From positions 1 to 40,176 of the IMG/VR virus record IMGVR_UViG_3300023104_000012: a stretch of 40,176 nt of DNA; one strand, given 5' to 3'. Position numbers and translations under genes: made by a program. A model generated the notes under the pieces. The model did not search any database. It saw only the letters and a list, made by a program, of their open reading frames with translations, and was not told the origin of the DNA. Positions 3,245 to 11,595 of the stretch are shown here, piece by piece (the first letter of the stretch is position 1; each line of letters opens with the position of its first letter). Origin of the DNA: a virus. Its lineage: Duplodnaviria > Caudoviricetes.

Positions 3245-3595
3245 ATGTTCGCTCTTGAGCTTCCTTGGCCGAACAAGAACCTTAGTCCGAACGCTCGCCC
3301 GCATTGGGCAGTCAAGGCTAAGGCCGCTAAGGGGGCGAACCAAGTGGCGTACTATGTAGCCCGCACGAAACTGCCTATTAAGCCTCAGTGGCTCTCTGCG
3401 CGGCTGGAATGGGCCTTCCATCCCAAGACGGCGCATGCTTTGGACCTCGATAACTGCATTGCCAGTTGCAAGGCATACCAGGATGGCATTTCCATCGCCC
3501 TCGGCATTGACGATTCGAAGTTTGATACGTCCTACCGAATTGCAGAACCAGTGAAGGGCGGGAAGGTCGTTGTGACCATCTCACCACCTCTATGA
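3245..3595 (+). CDS. rusA: RusA-like Holliday junction resolvase
   Basis: LPWP..LSPN N-terminus, DLDN...K...DG...GIDD acidic motif. Confidence 0.8.
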   Translation: MFALELPWPNKNLSPNARPHWAVKAKAAKGANQVAYYVARTKLPIKPQWLSARLEWAFHPKTAHALDLDNCIASCKAYQDGISIALGIDDSKFDTSYRIAEPVKGGKVVVTISPPL

Positions 3596-3618
3596 CAAGC
3601 CGCTGAAAGGAGACGAGA

Positions 3619-3834
3619 ATGAGCGAACTAGAGAAGCGTAAGGCGTGGTTCACGTTCGATGGGGAGGAGGGGAATCTTTGGTATTTCGGCCTTCCTACAC
3701 ATGCTGTTGGGACGCTACAGCAGCGTGAGGTTCGAGCTATCATCGACATTGATGCTGATGGCTGTTTGGCAGGTGTAGAATTGATTGACGATATGCCGCC
3801 GCTCTTTCCACACAATCCAGAGAAGGAAGAATAG
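3619..3834 (+). CDS. DUF2283-like protein
   Basis: FD.E....Y ... IIDIDADGCLAGVELID. Confidence 0.65.
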   Translation: MSELEKRKAWFTFDGEEGNLWYFGLPTHAVGTLQQREVRAIIDIDADGCLAGVELIDDMPPLFPHNPEKEE

Positions 3835-3835
3835 A

Positions 3836-4033
3836 ATGGCAGACGAAATCAAGGATGCGGATTGGGATAAGGTCTATGAAGTGATTACGCAGGCGATCCA
3901 GGTGAAGCTAAAAAACAATGAACAGCTTTCAACGTCTGTGAACTGGAAGGAAGGCCAGCAGTGGGTTTACGACCTCGCCAGCCGTATTTCATACGATGTT
4001 CACCGCGTTCTGGACAAAGACTTCGACGCCTAA
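3836..4033 (+). CDS. hypothetical protein
   Basis: MADEIKD..., AAGGA RBS. Confidence 0.6.
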   Translation: MADEIKDADWDKVYEVITQAIQVKLKNNEQLSTSVNWKEGQQWVYDLASRISYDVHRVLDKDFDA

Positions 4034-4043
4034 CCAACAAATA

Positions 4044-4082
4044 GGCCCGGAGGCTGTTATAAGCTATCCGGGCCGTGTTTTG
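4044..4082. terminator. probable bidirectional terminator
   Basis: GGCCCGGA(4044-4051)/TCCGGGCC(4067-4074) stem with T-rich flanks on both strands, between convergent units. Confidence 0.55.
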
Positions 4083-4250
4083 TATCGATAGACAGGGCTT
4101 GATACCTGTTTCCCGTTTCCGTGAGGAGCTATCCGTCACGACACATTGGCTAACTTCCGTGTCTCGAAGCGAATACGTCGCAGTGACACGGCTCGGGGCT
4201 AACGTGCGCACGTCCTTCCGTGCTGCTATCCCTACTACAATAGCTCTACT
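4082..4250 (-). ncRNA. unidentified multi-branch structured RNA
   Basis: Closing helix 4126-4132/4240-4246; internal helices 4157-4163/4185-4191, 4196-4203/4225-4232, 4208-4212/4219-4223; GAAA tetraloop; 3' H-type pseudoknot. Confidence 0.5.
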
Positions 4251-4385
4251 GCTGTATTAGTGCAATGGCTTTGGATGGTGGGGAATGTGGGAAGCCCCGT
4301 TTTCCTCTCCGGGGCCACGAGATGCTGGATGGTTTCCAGCTACACCCGTATCTGACGCACGAAGTTCAGCCGTGATGTAAGGTAA

Positions 4386-4457
4386 TGGCGGGCATCCCTG
4401 GATTTGAACCAAGTCCGCACGGTTTTGGAGACCGGCGTGCGTCCAACGCGAACACCC
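4386..4457 (-). tRNA. tRNA-Trp(CCA)-like, 72 nt, aberrant D-arm
   Basis: GGGTGTT..CGGT-CTCCAAA-ACCG..CTTGG-TTCAAAT-CCAGG-GATGCCC-G-CCA; G73 discriminator, encoded CCA. Confidence 0.8.
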
Positions 4458-4462
4458 AATTC

Positions 4463-4532
4463 TGGAGCGGATCGTGAGACTTGAACTCACCTCATCAGCT
4501 TGGAAGGCTGAACTCGTCCCTGACGGACCCGC
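4463..4532 (-). tRNA. tRNA-Gly(TCC)-like, 70 nt, aberrant D-arm
   Basis: GCGGGTC..TCAGC-CTTCCAA-GCTGA..GTGAG-TTCAAGT-CTCAC-GATCCGC-T-CCA; G1-C72, C2-G71, U73. Confidence 0.85.
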
Positions 4533-4617
4533 GTTGCAAGGATAATATCTCAGGCTGGGGAAAGGTTCAAGGCCTCTGAAGCAATGAGGCCCGCCACGAA
4601 TGAACGGAGCGAGCCTC

Positions 4618-5136
4618 TTAGGAACGCATGATTTCGCGAAACTCAGCCATGAGCGGATCGTGTTCATGCTGCCACTCGTCATCCTGGGTTCGGAAGTCCT
4701 TATGTAACCAATCCCCTTTACCGCGATTACACGGGTCGCAGAGGACTTGTAGGTTGCCCAAGGACAGCCTGAGATGCCAAAACTTGCCAAGGGGCTTGAT
4801 GTGGTCAACCACTAGCCTAGATTCTTTTGGCGTAGCTCCGCAGGATGGGCATCGGTGTCCATCGCGCTCTAGGGCCTGCATTCGAAGTTTCGTCCATTCC
4901 CACGATGAATAGAATGTCTTCCGGTCATTCGGGCTGGGCGCAAATTTCTTTGGCTTTTGAACGGTTGTGGTTTTGACGGCTCGTGTTTTAGGCGTTGACC
5001 TCTTTGCAGACTTTTTAGGTGGGTTTGCTGCCAAGATCATTTTAGCTTCTTCACTCAACGGATTTAGCTGATTGGACCGACGATCGTTGAACCTTTGCTT
5101 GTCCCATGCGGTCTTGTCTCTAGCTGACCAACCCAT
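4618..5136 (-). CDS. HNH endonuclease with basic N-terminal extension
   Basis: FYSSWEWTKLRMQALERDGHRCPSCG...VDHIKP...NLQVLCDPCNRGKG. Confidence 0.9.
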   Translation of the reverse strand: MGWSARDKTAWDKQRFNDRRSNQLNPLSEEAKMILAANPPKKSAKRSTPKTRAVKTTTVQKPKKFAPSPNDRKTFYSSWEWTKLRMQALERDGHRCPSCGATPKESRLVVDHIKPLGKFWHLRLSLGNLQVLCDPCNRGKGDWLHKDFRTQDDEWQHEHDPLMAEFREIMRS

Positions 5137-5139
5137 TCT

Positions 5140-5618
5140 GTATCCCTTCTTACTTACTACCTAATCTGTCGCTGAGTTCAGGTCGGTTGCTGTTGGATAA
5201 GGACTGTCTTCCCCGTACCAAATGATACGAGGAGCAGTCCAATCCGGGTCCTAACTGTCGCTTGAGGCGAGGTTCGGCGCATGCGGATAAGCGTCAGGCG
5301 ATCATGCCTTGGCTCTAGGGAGTTGCTTCCAAGAGAATTGATCCTCTTGCTGACACCCCTCTCCCCTACGGACTGGGTTTGCGCCTTGTCAGTTCCCCCT
5401 GGTTGCGCAGACTACGTAGAGTGACCCAGTGGGCACACCATCAAACAGAGCAGCGCCATGCCGTCCGTCACAGGGGGAAACCCTGTCTCTACGGACCTAA
5501 AGGGGTGATATGTTGGGTAAGGGCTTGAACCAAACACTAGGTTTAGCTATTGTGCCTTTACCGAAGTGTTTCACCCACTCTCGGTCAATGGTCAGGGTCT
5601 GAGAAACCGCTGATCAAC
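5140..5618 (-). ncRNA. large ornate structured RNA upstream of HNH (unidentified; possible replication primer or HNH-associated RNA)
   Basis: No ORF of 60 aa or more; many nested and crossing helices; G-U pairs favour the minus strand. Confidence 0.6.
5525..5553 (+). promoter_or_regulatory. sigma70-like promoter of antisense sRNA
   Basis: TTGAAC-17-TATTGT. Confidence 0.6.
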
Positions 5619-5685
5619 ATCCGCATAATCGGCTCCCCCAGCCATTAAGTCAAGCCCGCCAGCCTCAAGCTCGGCGGGTTTTTCT
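5560..5685 (+). ncRNA. small antisense RNA (~125 nt)
   Basis: Promoter, hairpins 5560-5585 and 5589-5616 with 7-nt loops, small hairpin 5631-5643, terminator. Confidence 0.55.
5625..5653 (-). promoter_or_regulatory. promoter of the minus-strand island
   Basis: (C)TTGACT-17-GATTAT. Confidence 0.45.
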
Positions 5686-5686
5686 T
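5653..5686 (+). terminator. Rho-independent terminator
   Basis: GCCCGCCAGC-CTCAA-GCTCGGCGGG followed by TTTTTCTT. Confidence 0.8.
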
Positions 5687-6228: not shown

Positions 6229-6562
6229 CCCATATGAAGACGTGATAGAAGGGCAATCGAAGCTCATGGAGCGCTATGAGGAGGCGCTAAAGGCGATCTT
6301 CGATAACCCACACGAACTACCGCGCCAATGGGCGCTGTATGGGCTTACAGGCGGTTCTAAACCGGTTCTGAACGGTTCGGCCAATCGCAAGGATATTACT
6401 GCCGACCGCATCCGTGTGCTGGAGGAGCATATCAAGTTCATCATACAGAACGACCGTGATGATATCGTTGCGGACGGGGGCGTTACGGTATTCGATGCGT
6501 GGGCGCAGCAAGCTGCGTTTTTGATCACCAGCGTTCAAGGAGGGGGGAAGAATGAGCTTTGA
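6221..6562 (+). CDS. hypothetical protein
   Basis: MTSPYEDVIEG..., overlaps both neighbours. Confidence 0.6.
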   Translation: MTSPYEDVIEGQSKLMERYEEALKAIFDNPHELPRQWALYGLTGGSKPVLNGSANRKDITADRIRVLEEHIKFIIQNDRDDIVADGGVTVFDAWAQQAAFLITSVQGGGKNEL

Positions 6563-6905
6563 CCAATTCTGGGCATGTTTCCCGCGCCGCGTAGCCAAGC
6601 TCGCAGCCAAGAAGGCTTATGACAAGGCTCTAAAGCAAACCACTCACCAAGAGATAATGGCAGGCGTTGAGCGGTATGCCTTCCACACTCGCAACACCGA
6701 ACATCAGTTTATCAAACACCCTGCCTCATGGCTCAACGCGGGCTGCTGGGAGGATGAGTTGCAAGACCAGCGCACCATCATCCCAAGCCAAAACATGACC
6801 AACCTAGACCGCCTAGAGCAAGACCTAGCAGAGAGGATTAGAAATGGAACGCGAAGCCAAGGAAGCCTTGATCTTGCGTCTGTTCCGCGCCTATCCGGGC
6901 GCTGA
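6552..6905 (+). CDS. stand-alone C-terminal domain of a phage replication initiator
   Basis: FDQFWACFPRRVAKLAAKKAY...FIKHPASWLNAGCWEDE motif; own RBS; no N-terminal HTH. Confidence 0.75.
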   Translation: MSFDQFWACFPRRVAKLAAKKAYDKALKQTTHQEIMAGVERYAFHTRNTEHQFIKHPASWLNAGCWEDELQDQRTIIPSQNMTNLDRLEQDLAERIRNGTRSQGSLDLASVPRLSGR

Positions 6906-7425
6906 GAGCAAGGTTAGCCGCGCAACGGTCGATACGTATCTAGAGGCCGTGGATTATTACCCGTTCAATTTTGTCCGCATGGGTATTGAGCAGTTCATTA
7001 CCGGACAGGTTCCACGAGAGGCAAGGAACCGGGCATTCGTCCCAAGCTGCGACGAGCTATCAACCCACATTCGAGTAGTGCAGGCCAATGACGGCAAGGT
7101 GCAGCGGCTCCTAGAGGCAGGACGGCAGCAGTTCATCGCTCAGGACAAGGATGCAGAGGTAGAGCAATCCCGCACCCCGGAGGCGATGGCTAGGGTAAGG
7201 AGTATGATGGAGGGGTTTGTTGAATCCGTCGATCCAAAGCAGAAAACTCCAGCGGAAATCGCTAGGGCCAAAGAGGAAGCCAAGCGCCACGACGCCTTCT
7301 ATGCCAATGAGTTTGAGGAACGCATTCCCGGCATTAAGGTAAGTTCATACCTGATCAGTAAGCTACGATACGAGACGTTTAACAGCGCCGATGATGAGCG
7401 CTATGATGCGGGAGAGGATAGATGA
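6844..7425 (+). CDS. putative helicase loader / replication protein P-like
   Basis: Position after initiator; helical N-terminal domain ending AFVPSCDEL. Confidence 0.45.
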   Translation: MEREAKEALILRLFRAYPGAESKVSRATVDTYLEAVDYYPFNFVRMGIEQFITGQVPREARNRAFVPSCDELSTHIRVVQANDGKVQRLLEAGRQQFIAQDKDAEVEQSRTPEAMARVRSMMEGFVESVDPKQKTPAEIARAKEEAKRHDAFYANEFEERIPGIKVSSYLISKLRYETFNSADDERYDAGEDR

Positions 7426-7631
7426 GCAAATTATTGCCGTGCCCATTCTGCGGTTTCGATGATGAGCTATACCCATCTTACCGTTGGCCGGGAAACATCG
7501 GCCTTCATGCCATCGACTGCCTTCGGTGCGGTATCGATTTTGTGCCGCGCGAGGGAATGGACGTAATCGCGGCGTGGAATAAACGCCCCTCCCAATCCCA
7601 ACCCACTCCATCCAAACAAGAGAAGATGTAA
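7422..7631 (+). CDS. Lar-family restriction alleviation zinc-finger protein
   Basis: LLPCPFCG...CLRCG...IAAWNKR. Confidence 0.8.
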   Translation: MSKLLPCPFCGFDDELYPSYRWPGNIGLHAIDCLRCGIDFVPREGMDVIAAWNKRPSQSQPTPSKQEKM

Positions 7632-7841
7632 ATGAGCAGCTTAAACGAAATCGGGTCGGACGAACTGGAAATTATGTGCAGGGCGCACGACGCAGAAGAT
7701 GCGGCGCAGAAGGGCGAGCCGTCGCCATGGGATTTTGTAGAGCAGGACGGAAAGGTCGATGCGGAATGGGTTAGCGAGCGAATTTGCGCGATGAAAATGG
7801 CAGTCAACGCTCTGATTAAGCATCAGGAGAACAATAAATGA
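7632..7841 (+). CDS. hypothetical protein
   Basis: 69 aa in operon. Confidence 0.6.
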   Translation: MSSLNEIGSDELEIMCRAHDAEDAAQKGEPSPWDFVEQDGKVDAEWVSERICAMKMAVNALIKHQENNK

Positions 7842-8305
7842 GCGACACAAACGTATTCGTATGCACAGGCCGTCTAGGGCGTGACCCAGAATCTCGGACA
7901 TTTCAAGACGGACACAAGGTGGTGAACCTCAATCTGGCTGTGAGTGATCAATGGAAATCGAAAGACACGGGCGAGAAGCAAGAGCGCACCCTATGGCTCA
8001 ACGTATCCATCCAAAACCAGGGCATTGCCAAGGTAGCGGAACAATACCTCAAGAAGGGTAGCCGCGTTTCCATCTCAGGAAAGCTCCAATCCCGCGAGTA
8101 CGAGAAGGACGGACAGAATCATACGGTCATTGAACTGGTCATAAGTCCCTACGGAGGGTCACTGACCATGCTTGACGGCCCAAGTGGGGATAGCCAGCCA
8201 CGACAGCAGGAACGCCAGCCAGCGAGGCATATGGCGGCAGGCCCTAGCGGCGCATTCGGTTCCGATCCACTCGATGATATCCCCTTCGCTCCGGAGTGGC
8301 GCTAA
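7838..8305 (+). CDS. ssb: single-stranded DNA-binding protein
   Basis: GRLGRDPE...W....GE..E.T.W...YLKKGSRV...GKL; acidic tail DDIPF. Confidence 0.95.
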   Translation: MSDTNVFVCTGRLGRDPESRTFQDGHKVVNLNLAVSDQWKSKDTGEKQERTLWLNVSIQNQGIAKVAEQYLKKGSRVSISGKLQSREYEKDGQNHTVIELVISPYGGSLTMLDGPSGDSQPRQQERQPARHMAAGPSGAFGSDPLDDIPFAPEWR

Positions 8306-8898
8306 TGCTCTCCACGGTAGAAACCCATGAGTATCTAGCGCGCCGAGAACGGCTAGGAGTTTTCCAAGCCAAGCCGGTAGCTATCAAAAGGCGTGAATTA
8401 AAGACCGATCAACCGGAGCCGGTTTATGTCCCGATTGCAGAATCATTGAGCGATTCTATCGATGCTGAGAAGTGGAAGGGGGTTATGAGAGAAGTTTCGA
8501 ACAAGCACGGCATACCCCTCGAAACCATAAAATCAAAGTCGCGATCCAGAAAAACAACAATGGCGCGACATGAAATTTGTTACCGGCTAATTACGGAATT
8601 CAAAATGTCCTACCCCGCAGCGGCGCGGAAGCTAGGTTATGATAACCACACATCAGTGCTTCATGCCGTAGATAAATTTGCATCGCGTCATGGGCTTCCT
8701 CCAGTCATCCGCGCTCACATAGTAGTTCACGAAGGGAGGGACAAAGAAATGTATATCATGTGTCGGGGAGGAGCGACTTACAAAGAGGTTGGAGAGGCGT
8801 TCGGCCTATCTGTCCCGCATACGAATAACGTTTGCATCGAATATGCAAGGGCGAATGGCCTGCCTCATCCGCAAGCCAATAATGGCGGATCGTTCTAG
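8305..8898 (+). CDS. DnaA C-terminal (domain IV-like) HTH protein with second C-terminal HTH
   Basis: SKSRSRKTTMARHEICY...SYPAAARKLGYDNHTSVLHA; TYKEVGEAFGLS. Confidence 0.75.
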   Translation: MLSTVETHEYLARRERLGVFQAKPVAIKRRELKTDQPEPVYVPIAESLSDSIDAEKWKGVMREVSNKHGIPLETIKSKSRSRKTTMARHEICYRLITEFKMSYPAAARKLGYDNHTSVLHAVDKFASRHGLPPVIRAHIVVHEGRDKEMYIMCRGGATYKEVGEAFGLSVPHTNNVCIEYARANGLPHPQANNGGSF

Positions 8899-10396: not shown

Positions 10397-10998
10397 TGGC
10401 TACCGAATCCGAAATCGATCGTATTTTGACGGAGCTAGCAGACCTTGTCGAAGGCGACACGCTGGACGAGTTTCAGGCTACGGCGCTTCTGCAAGCCCAG
10501 ACAATTCTCCAATCCCTTCGCAGCCAAGCGGGGGAGAGTGAGGCAGTACTCAAGTGGGTACCCGTATATGCTGGGTCCATAGACTTGAAAGCCGAAACCG
10601 CTCTCGGTGGCTACACTATGAGCTTTGACGCCCCAACGGCAGGCGGAGCGGTTAATCTTTGGATGGCGGGTGCTGACGTTGATACCTTCCAGGTGTTCGA
10701 CACTCGAAAGGAAGCCGTGGCCGCCGCAGAGGCGGATTATCTCGCACGCTCCCTCGCCCGCCCCGCCCCCATTGAGATAACAGAGGATGCTCTAAATGAA
10801 GCCGTGACGGCAGAGTTATTGGCAGAGCATAGCGGTTGTGGACACGGGGTTCAGGTCGAGCAAGTCACCGCTAAACTAGCGCCTGGAGACGCCGTTTATG
10901 TGGTTAGGGGCAAACTTGGACAAGCACTGCTCTTGCCCAAGTCTAACAGGATCGAAACGCTTTATCGAGTGCCCGCCCTTCAAGGAGAGAAGAAGTGA
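10393..10998 (+). CDS. hypothetical protein
   Basis: 201 aa, coupled. Confidence 0.65.
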   Translation: MMATESEIDRILTELADLVEGDTLDEFQATALLQAQTILQSLRSQAGESEAVLKWVPVYAGSIDLKAETALGGYTMSFDAPTAGGAVNLWMAGADVDTFQVFDTRKEAVAAAEADYLARSLARPAPIEITEDALNEAVTAELLAEHSGCGHGVQVEQVTAKLAPGDAVYVVRGKLGQALLLPKSNRIETLYRVPALQGEKK

Positions 10999-11288
10999 GC
11001 GATGATCTGTTGGCATTGCTGAAGAAGCGAGTTGTCTGGTGGGAATCGAGCATCAGGAACAACCGAGAATATGATGTAACCGATTGCGACCTAGACGATA
11101 AACTGATTGAGAGGCTTAAGGCGGATGCAAATCTAATCCAGGAGATAGAAGGGTATTTAGAACTGATAGCCGAAATGGACGAGGTGGATGCCGCTCTAGA
11201 CCCAACGCATGCCATTAGGATTGCAGGCGCAGCAAGGCGGCTTATCCTCTCCAAAGCCAAATCCCAACAAGAAGGCGAGACAGAATGA
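10995..11288 (+). CDS. hypothetical protein
   Basis: 97 aa, coupled. Confidence 0.6.
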   Translation: MSDDLLALLKKRVVWWESSIRNNREYDVTDCDLDDKLIERLKADANLIQEIEGYLELIAEMDEVDAALDPTHAIRIAGAARRLILSKAKSQQEGETE

Positions 11289-11461
11289 GCGACATGGATA
11301 AGATGCTGTGTGAAGTGCGCGAAGAGTTGGAGCGTATGAACTCGAAAGGAAAACTAGCGGTTTGGGAAATGGCCGATGATCGCGGGTTGGAAATTGAGGA
11401 ATACGTCGAGCTGTTCAAACACGTGTTATCTAAGTTGGACATACCTCCAAAGCCCACTTGA
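11285..11461 (+). CDS. hypothetical protein
   Basis: Manual translation MSDMDKMLCEVREELER..., 58 aa, ATGA-coupled. Confidence 0.6.
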   Translation: MSDMDKMLCEVREELERMNSKGKLAVWEMADDRGLEIEEYVELFKHVLSKLDIPPKPT

Positions 11462-11491
11462 CCTAACCCAACAAACCACGCATAAAGATGA

Positions 11492-11571
11492 TGCAAGCCC
11501 CTCCTCTTGCGTTCTGCTCATCTCCTCCCCCGGAAACCCTCGGCACTGATCATGTCGGGGGTTTCTGTTTG
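11492..11571 (+). ncRNA. anti-Shine-Dalgarno (cuckoo-like) small RNA
   Basis: Promoter TTGACC-17-CATAAA (11458-11486); hairpin loop CCCCTCCT; linker GCTCATCTCCTCCCC; terminator hairpin 11533-11565. Confidence 0.6.
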
Positions 11572-11595
11572 TGTGAACTAGTTTGCAAATAGGGC

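Follow-up and report, generated by a model that had tools for sequence, protein, structure and literature searches.

The non-coding block located upstream of an HNH endonuclease gene in the phage DNA analyzed here is likely an RNA-driven replication start site, rather than a partner of the neighbouring nuclease. The window (the whole stretch of DNA that was analyzed, 40,176 nt) is a tailed-phage record of 40 kb, 95% complete, in which the block is predicted to give rise to a long folded RNA from the minus strand and, from a convergent promoter, to a small antisense RNA; the block co-occurs with a replication initiator devoid of its DNA-binding half and iteron linker. We consider it reasonably probable that the block is a cis-acting origin of one kind or the other, RNA-dependent or DNA. 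The narrower reading, an antisense-controlled, RNA-dependent (R-loop) origin that resembles ColE1 RNA II/RNA I in its working and is not a member of that group, is offered tentatively, as we place it somewhat short of an even chance. An earlier note on this DNA had described the long RNA; the convergent antisense promoter, the small RNA and the link with truncated initiators were absent from it. The features referred to in the text are the following:

4386..4538, minus strand: tRNA-Gly(TCC) and tRNA-Trp(CCA)-like genes (Rfam tRNA matches; ARAGORN at lowered threshold)
4586..4617, minus strand: conserved box hairpin directly 3' of the HNH stop codon, homologous to the antisense terminator
4618..5136, minus strand: free-standing HNH endonuclease, 172 aa, with a basic N-terminus and a C-terminal HNH (PF01844, phrog_144)
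5140..5618, minus strand: predicted long non-coding RNA (~480 nt), candidate R-loop/primer RNA (fold; no ORF of at least 60 aa; no Rfam match)
5195..5245, minus strand: long irregular 3' hairpin, ~60 nt before the HNH start (MFE of 5140-5260 reached by 0 of 300 shuffles)
5350..5507, minus strand: central domain with G-runs and with helices that cross or compete, closing helix 5507-5499/5362-5354 (helix check, shuffles)
5525..5553, plus strand: antisense promoter-like site (-35 at 5525-5530, 17-nt spacer, -10 at 5548-5553; predicted +1 at 5560)
5560..5616, either strand: hairpins B (5560-5585) and A (5589-5616), common to both predicted transcripts (covariation)
5560..5686, plus strand: predicted antisense RNA of ~125 nt with four hairpins (fold, covariation, model R1)
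5625..5653, minus strand: main promoter-like site (-35 at 5653-5648, 17-nt spacer, -10 at 5630-5625; predicted start near 5618)
5652..5686, plus strand: terminator-like hairpin and U-run, its 5' arm overlapping the main -35 box (alignment)
6552..6905, plus strand: replication initiator, C-terminal domain only, 117 aa (matches 179-254 of the 383-position phrog_270)
6844..7425, plus strand: 193-aa gene overlapping the initiator, in helicase-loader position (function inferred from position; no family match)
8296-8898, plus strand: 200-aa protein with a DnaA C-terminal helix-turn-helix (PF08299; profile match)

The genes recognized in the window by a profile scan of ORFs include those for terminase, portal, capsid, SSB, RusA and Erf, and no integrase was found among the scanned ORFs (46 plus 44, partly overlapping, a subset of all ORFs). 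The capsid protein shows 51% identity to that of Rhizobium phage RHph_I3_18 and 46% to those of Brucella Tb-like podoviruses, and a GapR-like domain is also encoded, so that an alphaproteobacterial host is likely. Most of the stretch was present in sequencing runs from leaf litter, with smaller shares in rhizosphere and compost; RNA-type sequencing runs contained small shares of it only. The two tRNA-like genes, which have short D-arms and were missed by ARAGORN at default settings, have a promoter-like site of their own at 4570-4542 and are neighbours, located outside the RNA element; the tRNA-Gly gene is also present in G004, G007 and G009. Short boxes of 35-55 nt (window 3582-3627, 3804-3843, 4028-4076, 4233-4278, 4573-4619, 7586-7637 and 10507-11292), with 91-100% identity between the window and G002 and other relatives, lie between otherwise unrelated cassettes or genes and are likely exchange points for modular shuffling. 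The 8-mer GCTTTGGA has, in raw counts, 16 copies in the window (positions including 1482, 3437, 4268, 7240, 11257 and 11453) and 5-13 in relatives, often by gene borders, and the non-coding stretch 11446-11573 (128 nt, 99% identical to G002, with strong hairpins) is a probable late promoter and terminator region.

The predicted long RNA, whose main promoter-like site is the same in L090, L091 and L111, runs into the ribosome-binding site of the HNH gene, the stretch ending at the start of this gene. No ORF of at least 60 aa was found in 5140..5618, and none of the small ORFs in the RNAs was conserved. Rfam searches with the window RNA at E values up to 10 gave no match for it, including HEARO, GOLLD/ROOL/OLE, RNA I/RNA II and ribozymes, and with the window, L055, L072, L077, L082, L090, L091 and L115 the tRNA matches alone reached the gathering score. 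Blastn retrieved nothing in phages and a single plasmid match (E 0.5), judged to be due to chance. A self-cleaving or self-splicing ribozyme was considered and discarded, no known catalytic core having been matched in those Rfam searches.

All nine helices listed in the earlier note are present at the positions it proposed, and two of the nine are complete only on the minus strand, in line with its remark that mismatches resolve as G-U pairs there. Folding better than that of shuffled sequences, by which the proposal was to be judged, was indeed obtained over 5137-5640, with a z of -3.61 on the minus strand (0 of 100 shuffles as good) versus -1.24 on the plus strand (10 of 100). The nested-fold signal comes from the two ends of the RNA, and 120-nt windows over RNA nt 81-400 gave z values from -0.7 to +0.4. 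In the central domain, the boundaries of which were hand-picked around the helices, allowing crossing helices over 5345-5510 gave a greedy score of -84.7 on the minus strand, compared to -65.1±5.8 in shuffles (0 of 150 as good); the plus strand also gave 0 of 150, and the nested MFE was equalled by 24 of 150 shuffles. Three of 162 tiles across the window (-4.1, -3.6 and -3.4) come near the z of the central domain (-3.7). An excess of pseudoknots as a family trait was rejected, this value being approached by just one of seven other long RNAs (two families). Pairing 5393-5401/5471-5479 excludes 5470-5475/5481-5486, and therefore the nine helices cannot all coexist. None of the fetched relatives aligns over 5140-5500, so that the pseudoknots are without covariation support; central-domain variants of about 95% identity were present in compost contigs, and a pattern made from the pseudoknot core had one viral match, judged to be due to chance. 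From the ornate pseudoknotted RNA of ~480 nt initially described, the helices and the minus-strand fold are retained, and the pseudoknot core is left without an aligned relative.

The G-tracts ascribed to the minus strand are also borne out, with four runs of four or more G versus a mean of 0.87 per 360 nt, and at least three runs in 3 of 86 tiles. The G skew of the window RNA is +0.05 versus +0.02±0.08, and beyond nt 120 it is positive in 14 of 15 RNAs. The sequence signs of an R-loop (G skew and G-runs) are modest.

Convergent with the main promoter, the antisense promoter-like site shows invariant columns, comprising the -35 and the start of the -10, and a gap-free 17-nt spacer in seven loci; its predicted +1 coincides with the start of a hairpin. 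The conserved 21-nt word was also considered as a T-loop or tRNA mimic, a reading rejected because the invariant positions and their spacing fit a promoter on the opposite strand. The four hairpins of the predicted small RNA are B', A', 5631-5643, which falls within the spacer of the main promoter, and the terminator, kept in L082, L090, L091 and L111. When the seven loci were aligned, 99.3% of cells pair, compared to 29-47% in slid controls, and compensatory changes appear in 11 of 20 pairs, with the qualification that the structure was derived from the same alignment used for covariation and that the terminal hairpin is represented by two sequence types only. Hairpin A accounts for compensatory changes in nine of its ten pairs in the seven loci, hairpin B is supported in four loci, and in the terminal hairpin the one-sided changes, three in number, leave G-U pairs on the antisense strand but not on the other. 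The 131-nt antisense stretch folds with a z of -4.48 on the plus strand (0 of 200 shuffles) and -2.30 on the minus strand, the other loci being weaker and L077 slightly favouring the other strand. The covariation analysis suggested earlier was thus positive for the antisense hairpins. A convergent-promoter pattern, tuned on RNA-bearing loci, was found once in the 40-kb window, once in G002, in 10 of 15 RNA loci and twice in G009, with no site in G004, G008, RHph_I3_18, RHph_N3_2 or 17 prophage loci.

Capsid relatives, pattern scans and the model R1 led to nine distinct loci with a homologous 5' module: the window, G002, L072, L077, L082, L090, L091, L111 and G007. They diverge after about 115 nt, the divergent part being of ~300-500 nt; G002 and L072 share 190 nt, G007 and L082 have in common a 300-nt 3' part, and the L090 and L111 RNAs are nearly identical. 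The predicted long transcript measures 424-636 nt in 15 loci. A single conserved ornate pseudoknotted RNA does not describe these relatives, which share only the first ~115 nt. The 5' pattern had 14 matches in metagenomes, eight due to chance and six real (one identical to the window, two to known loci, and L077 and L082 as new), and in the genome collection the module pattern gave no match and the box pattern 16, all by chance. Model R1 matched G007, which was outside its seed, with 34 bits at about 0.7 kb from the short initiator of that phage, and gave no match in G004 and G008 (40 kb of each) or in G009 (whole). In G002, L072 and L077 the module is oriented toward the replication genes, and the window, L090, L091 and L111 have it facing the other way; in G007 it lies downstream of the initiator. 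Such freedom of placement fits a cis site and not a leader. The island that contains it is bounded by conserved boxes of ~45 nt, and in G002, L072, L077 and L082 it adjoins a box hairpin like that at 4586..4617, in opposite orientation. Brucella phage Tb, a capsid relative, has a primase/polymerase and no module in the 17 kb examined. Among the DNA contigs of a compost run, depth was 63-79 over 5148-5686 versus 19 for the HNH contig, depth being a weak hint, and one compost contig departs from the window sequence at 5172.

Some other elements were observed in these records. The minus strands of L090 (70-460) and L111 (280-670) carry nearly identical copies of another RNA body, about 390 nt long; at least two of the few differences between them keep pairing by eye (G-U vs A-U), and the first part of this body has a pseudoknot-tolerant z of -4.2. 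On the plus strands of L082 (1646-1752), L055 (1744-1827) and L072 (about 2205-2295) there are tRNA-like genes with odd arms, the one in L082 with a 42-nt D-loop insertion, no normal anticodon loop and a CCA end, and a tRNA-like gene of G002 has a 24-nt anticodon loop. These odd-armed genes are possibly decoys or split tRNAs.

HNH relatives led to a second RNA family, represented in Sulfitobacter phage phiGT1 by a gene-free stretch of ~480 nt before the HNH gene (fold z -3.0):

L115 1826-2308, and in L119, L121, L122 and L128: phiGT1-family RNA, about 450-480 nt, upstream of an HNH gene, no Rfam match

Five of 36 HNH loci share this RNA and L124 shares its 5' part, and the HNH proteins encoded after it (six loci) have about 40-47% identity to that of the window over the matched stretch. 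In the four members aligned (~450 nt) compensatory changes appear in 33 of 105 pairs, and 90.8% of the alignment is paired, compared to 37-46% when slid; the covarying fold along the whole length was seen for this separate family, as opposed to 5140-5500 of the window. The layout consists, by eye, of a promoter, a 5' hairpin, an antisense promoter-like site ~60-100 nt in and a long 3' hairpin, and the 3' hairpin, placed like that at 5195..5245, covaries. The convergent-promoter pattern was present in two of six loci of the family. The phiGT1-family RNA did not align with the window RNA, and a sequence-only profile of it gave no match among 401 genomes belonging to the order of G032. Separately, about 400 nt of apparently non-coding sequence precede a related HNH gene in L129 (about 1860-2284), with a 5' hairpin and a possible antisense promoter; this stretch matches neither RNA family, and the L129 record is without the initiator domain discussed below.

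The initiator of the window consists of the C-terminal domain only and, in contrast with that of a lambda-type iteron origin, has no N-terminal DNA-binding domain. The C-terminal domain of lambda O recruits P-DnaB. The G002 initiator (113 aa) matches positions 218-295 of the O-like phrog_678, and two different C-terminal families, phrog_270-type and phrog_678 O-like, are shortened alike. An initiator of 112-152 aa, corresponding to this domain, was found in 13 of 13 RNA-bearing records in which the gene is visible (the window, G002, G007, L072, L077, L090, L091 and L111, plus phiGT1, L119, L121, L122 and L124; L082 and L128 are fragments ending short of the gene and are outside the 13), counts that are not independent because the phages are related. 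Full-length or different replication genes accompany the absence of the module in G004, with a DUF1376 initiator of 260 aa, and in G008 and G009, with primase-helicases. In 20 of 34 HNH-selected records examined, the initiator domain was present in four, all RNA-bearing (two being profile seeds), and 15 HNH-selected records without the RNA family, nine of them at least 90% complete, were also without the domain. In 401 bacterial genomes (order of G031), 16 of 17 initiator matches were of 265-423 aa and one was cut by a contig end; R1 had no match within about 1.5 kb of them, a weak control because the same gap test missed three of eight RNA-bearing loci. The initiators of JY08 and EBPR podovirus 2 are full-length, and the stretches examined in these phages contain no gap above about 310 nt; the 283-aa initiator gene of L166 contains visible repeats, in contrast to the 117-aa one of the window. 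RHph_I3_18 (126 aa) and RHph_N3_2 (112 aa) have short initiators, yet neither an R1 match nor a convergent pair was found in them. Gene-free tracts of 0.7-0.9 kb precede the packaging genes of these two phages (L154 7943-8636 in RHph_N3_2, L116 42326-43069 in RHph_I3_18), with tRNA-like parts and a shared stem-loop of ~65 nt, by eye. Across the RNAs no conserved DnaA boxes, no iteron-like repeats (by eye) and no common 3' motif were found.

The 3' half of the phiGT1-family RNA was also identified in a satellite, G857, which has an integrase, an excisionase-like gene, terminase, HNH, capsid, protease and portal, and no primase, helicase or initiator among its 31 ORFs. The match (nhmmer E 5e-14, 45 bits, with a bias term of 14) is located directly after the excisionase-like gene (L183 1870-2300). 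Four sister satellites, with 60-83% identical TerL, have a replication gene in the slot that holds the RNA in G857 (Prim-Pol plus an AAA_25 helicase, an AAA_25 helicase in two of them, or an HTH_36 N-terminal half of an O-like initiator), and the RNA profile had no match in them; no copy of the G857 RNA was found in plasmids. As the phiGT1 and window families do not align, the evidence from the satellite reaches the window only via their shared layout. In a satellite, L185, the O-like initiator encoded at 6492-7058 of the minus strand is reduced to its N-terminal, DNA-binding half, the converse of the short initiators, and the other half may be borrowed from a helper.

An RNA-dependent origin would work as follows. 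Both RNAs would be transcribed from the convergent promoters. Once folded, the long transcript of the minus strand would hybridize again to its template, forming an R-loop, and initiation would be damped by the small plus-strand RNA, which would pair with the first ~58 nt of the long one. The R-loop could open the duplex in place of iteron binding, with the leftover initiator domain and its partner loading the host helicase on the displaced strand and host RNase H and Pol I, or primase, starting synthesis. The varying RNA bodies would give each phage its own specificity. In ColE1, as described in the part of the source available, a 550-nt hybrid of RNA II is processed by RNase H and extended by Pol I under the control of RNA I (PMC5043065). 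Common to both systems are a non-coding transcript of ~500 nt, and a short structured antisense RNA with terminator over its 5' end (predicted here). According to the same part of that source, ColE1 has no origin-binding initiator (PMC5043065); the window initiator is without its N-terminal half, but a DnaA_C HTH protein is encoded. The differences are the lack of sequence or Rfam matches to RNA I/RNA II in the window, an overlap of about 58 nt here versus about 110 in ColE1, an antisense RNA that in the window family runs on across the main promoter, the occurrence here in a satellite and in tailed phages whose hosts are probably alphaproteobacterial, the retention of the C-terminal initiator domain and of a probable loader, and the mosaic nature of the RNA bodies. 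The ColE1-like primer or origin proposed in the earlier note gains from the covarying antisense RNA, the loss of an initiator half and the satellite slot, and finds no homology behind it. A parallel among phages is T4, for which R-loop origins with the gp59 loader are described: at oriF/oriG, as in our reading, a promoter-driven RNA is proposed to open and prime the origin with a loader on the displaced strand, but in the sections of the source available T4 R-loops are independent of specific sequence and neither an antisense RNA nor a folded primer is named (PMC3016281). T4 also encodes its own replisome and RNase H. Against the RNA-dependent origin stand the short initiators of RHph_I3_18 and RHph_N3_2, in which no module was detected, the absence of a 3' motif common to all RNAs and of a conserved DnaA box, the small G skew of the window RNA, the DnaA C-terminal HTH protein, which could bind an origin in trans, and the tRNA-like gene within the L082 transcript. 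In addition, phiGT1 is described, in the part of its report available, as lytic and without integrase (PMC7427195), which makes copy-number control less needed.

The block could instead work as a DNA origin that transcription from its two convergent promoters activates, on the pattern of lambda pR/pO. A protein acting in trans, such as the one with the DnaA C-terminal HTH, would bind it, and the RNAs would matter little. This would account equally for the tie to short initiators and the satellite slot; a DnaA_C protein is encoded in both the window and phiGT1 (that of the window could be an origin binder or a late regulator), and in lambda the pO promoter, and not oop RNA, affects replication according to the excerpts available of PMC3985674. 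The lambda arrangement is also alike in that a convergent promoter, with its short antisense RNA, lies close to an O-like gene that has a partner (same excerpts, PMC3985674). However, lambda O binds four iterons inside its own gene, and here that half is missing and a covarying non-coding block of ~480 nt lies outside the initiator gene. The compensatory pairs of the phiGT1 family suggest that RNA structure is under selection, in G004 a DnaA-like protein accompanies a full initiator, and the RNAs show neither conserved DnaA boxes nor visible iterons; altogether we regard this explanation as unlikely.

We find it similarly improbable that the block is an array of exchangeable cassettes for small RNAs (tRNA-like decoys or others with a counter-defence role) within a hypervariable island, the short-initiator link being due to shared ancestry. 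The conserved ~45-nt boxes between variable cassettes, the tRNA and odd tRNA-like genes in and beside the transcripts, and the way relatives share 115, 190 or 300 nt and then diverge are what such an island would show. Left unexplained are why the RNA occupies the replication slot of the satellite, why initiators of two families are truncated alike, and why the block is absent from G004, G008 and G009, which too carry tRNA-Gly or other tRNA-like genes. GOLLD, ROOL and OLE are large structured RNAs, found in phages and near tRNA genes. The block resembles them in these respects and differs in giving no Rfam match, in the conservation of its 5' 115 nt only, and in having an antisense partner.

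An antisense-controlled leader or attenuator for the downstream gene or genes, here HNH, would fit with the alternative pairing at the 3' arm of hairpin B and with RNAs that end at a ribosome-binding site in the window, G002, L072, L077, G007 and the phiGT1 family, but the genes that follow the RNA show no relationship from one phage to another, and in L090, L091 and L111 no gene follows it, which makes this reading very unlikely.

The last alternative, a guide or scaffold RNA for the HNH protein in a HEARO/omega-like ribonucleoprotein, is brought to mind by the basic N-terminus of this protein and by the position of its gene directly after the RNA in the window, as is that of related genes in the six phiGT1-family loci, and we consider it extremely unlikely: eight of the nine module loci have no HNH afterwards, for which reason membership in HEARO/omega RNAs fails, 30 of 36 loci of the HNH subfamily are without the shared upstream RNA, a compost contig leaves the window within the RNA and RNA contig depth exceeds that of HNH, and the two HNH-linked RNAs do not align. 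IscB is an ORF with a split RuvC and other domains around HNH. The long structured RNA directly upstream of an HNH-containing ORF is a real likeness to that system, but Pfam shows only HNH-type families in the 172 aa of the window protein, as anticipated in the earlier note, RNA and ORF occur independently, and Rfam gives no match. The HNH gene, for which 13 relatives were found, is likely a passenger or homing gene, a mobile passenger favouring this cassette; the A2 HNH profile matched one of 401 genomes, with no sign of the RNA there by eye.

No description of these elements was found in the literature searched, with supplements and subscription papers outside its scope, and catalogues of candidate RNAs could list such motifs; none of the replication terms looked for occur in PMC10386132. 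With clear reservations, we hold it possible that RNA-primed origins under antisense control form a widespread class among alphaproteobacterial phages and satellites. In this class several unrelated folded RNAs of ~480 nt would have taken the place of the origin-binding half of lambda-O-type initiators; the C-terminal domain that is left would, with its partner, load the helicase at the R-loop, and specificity would come from the swappable RNA bodies.

Should the origin reading fail, two structured RNA families with no Rfam match would remain, each with a predicted antisense partner. Given that phiGT1 is a cultured member, the RNA-dependent origin is directly testable in Sulfitobacter. If true, it would offer a comparative set for what triggers a persistent primer hybrid, and possibly small replicons for alphaproteobacteria, and ColE1-like control of origins would no longer be confined to plasmids but would reach tailed phages and satellites. 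It would also account for replication with half an initiator in many small alphaproteobacterial phages, and imply that RNA took over the job of a protein domain more than once.
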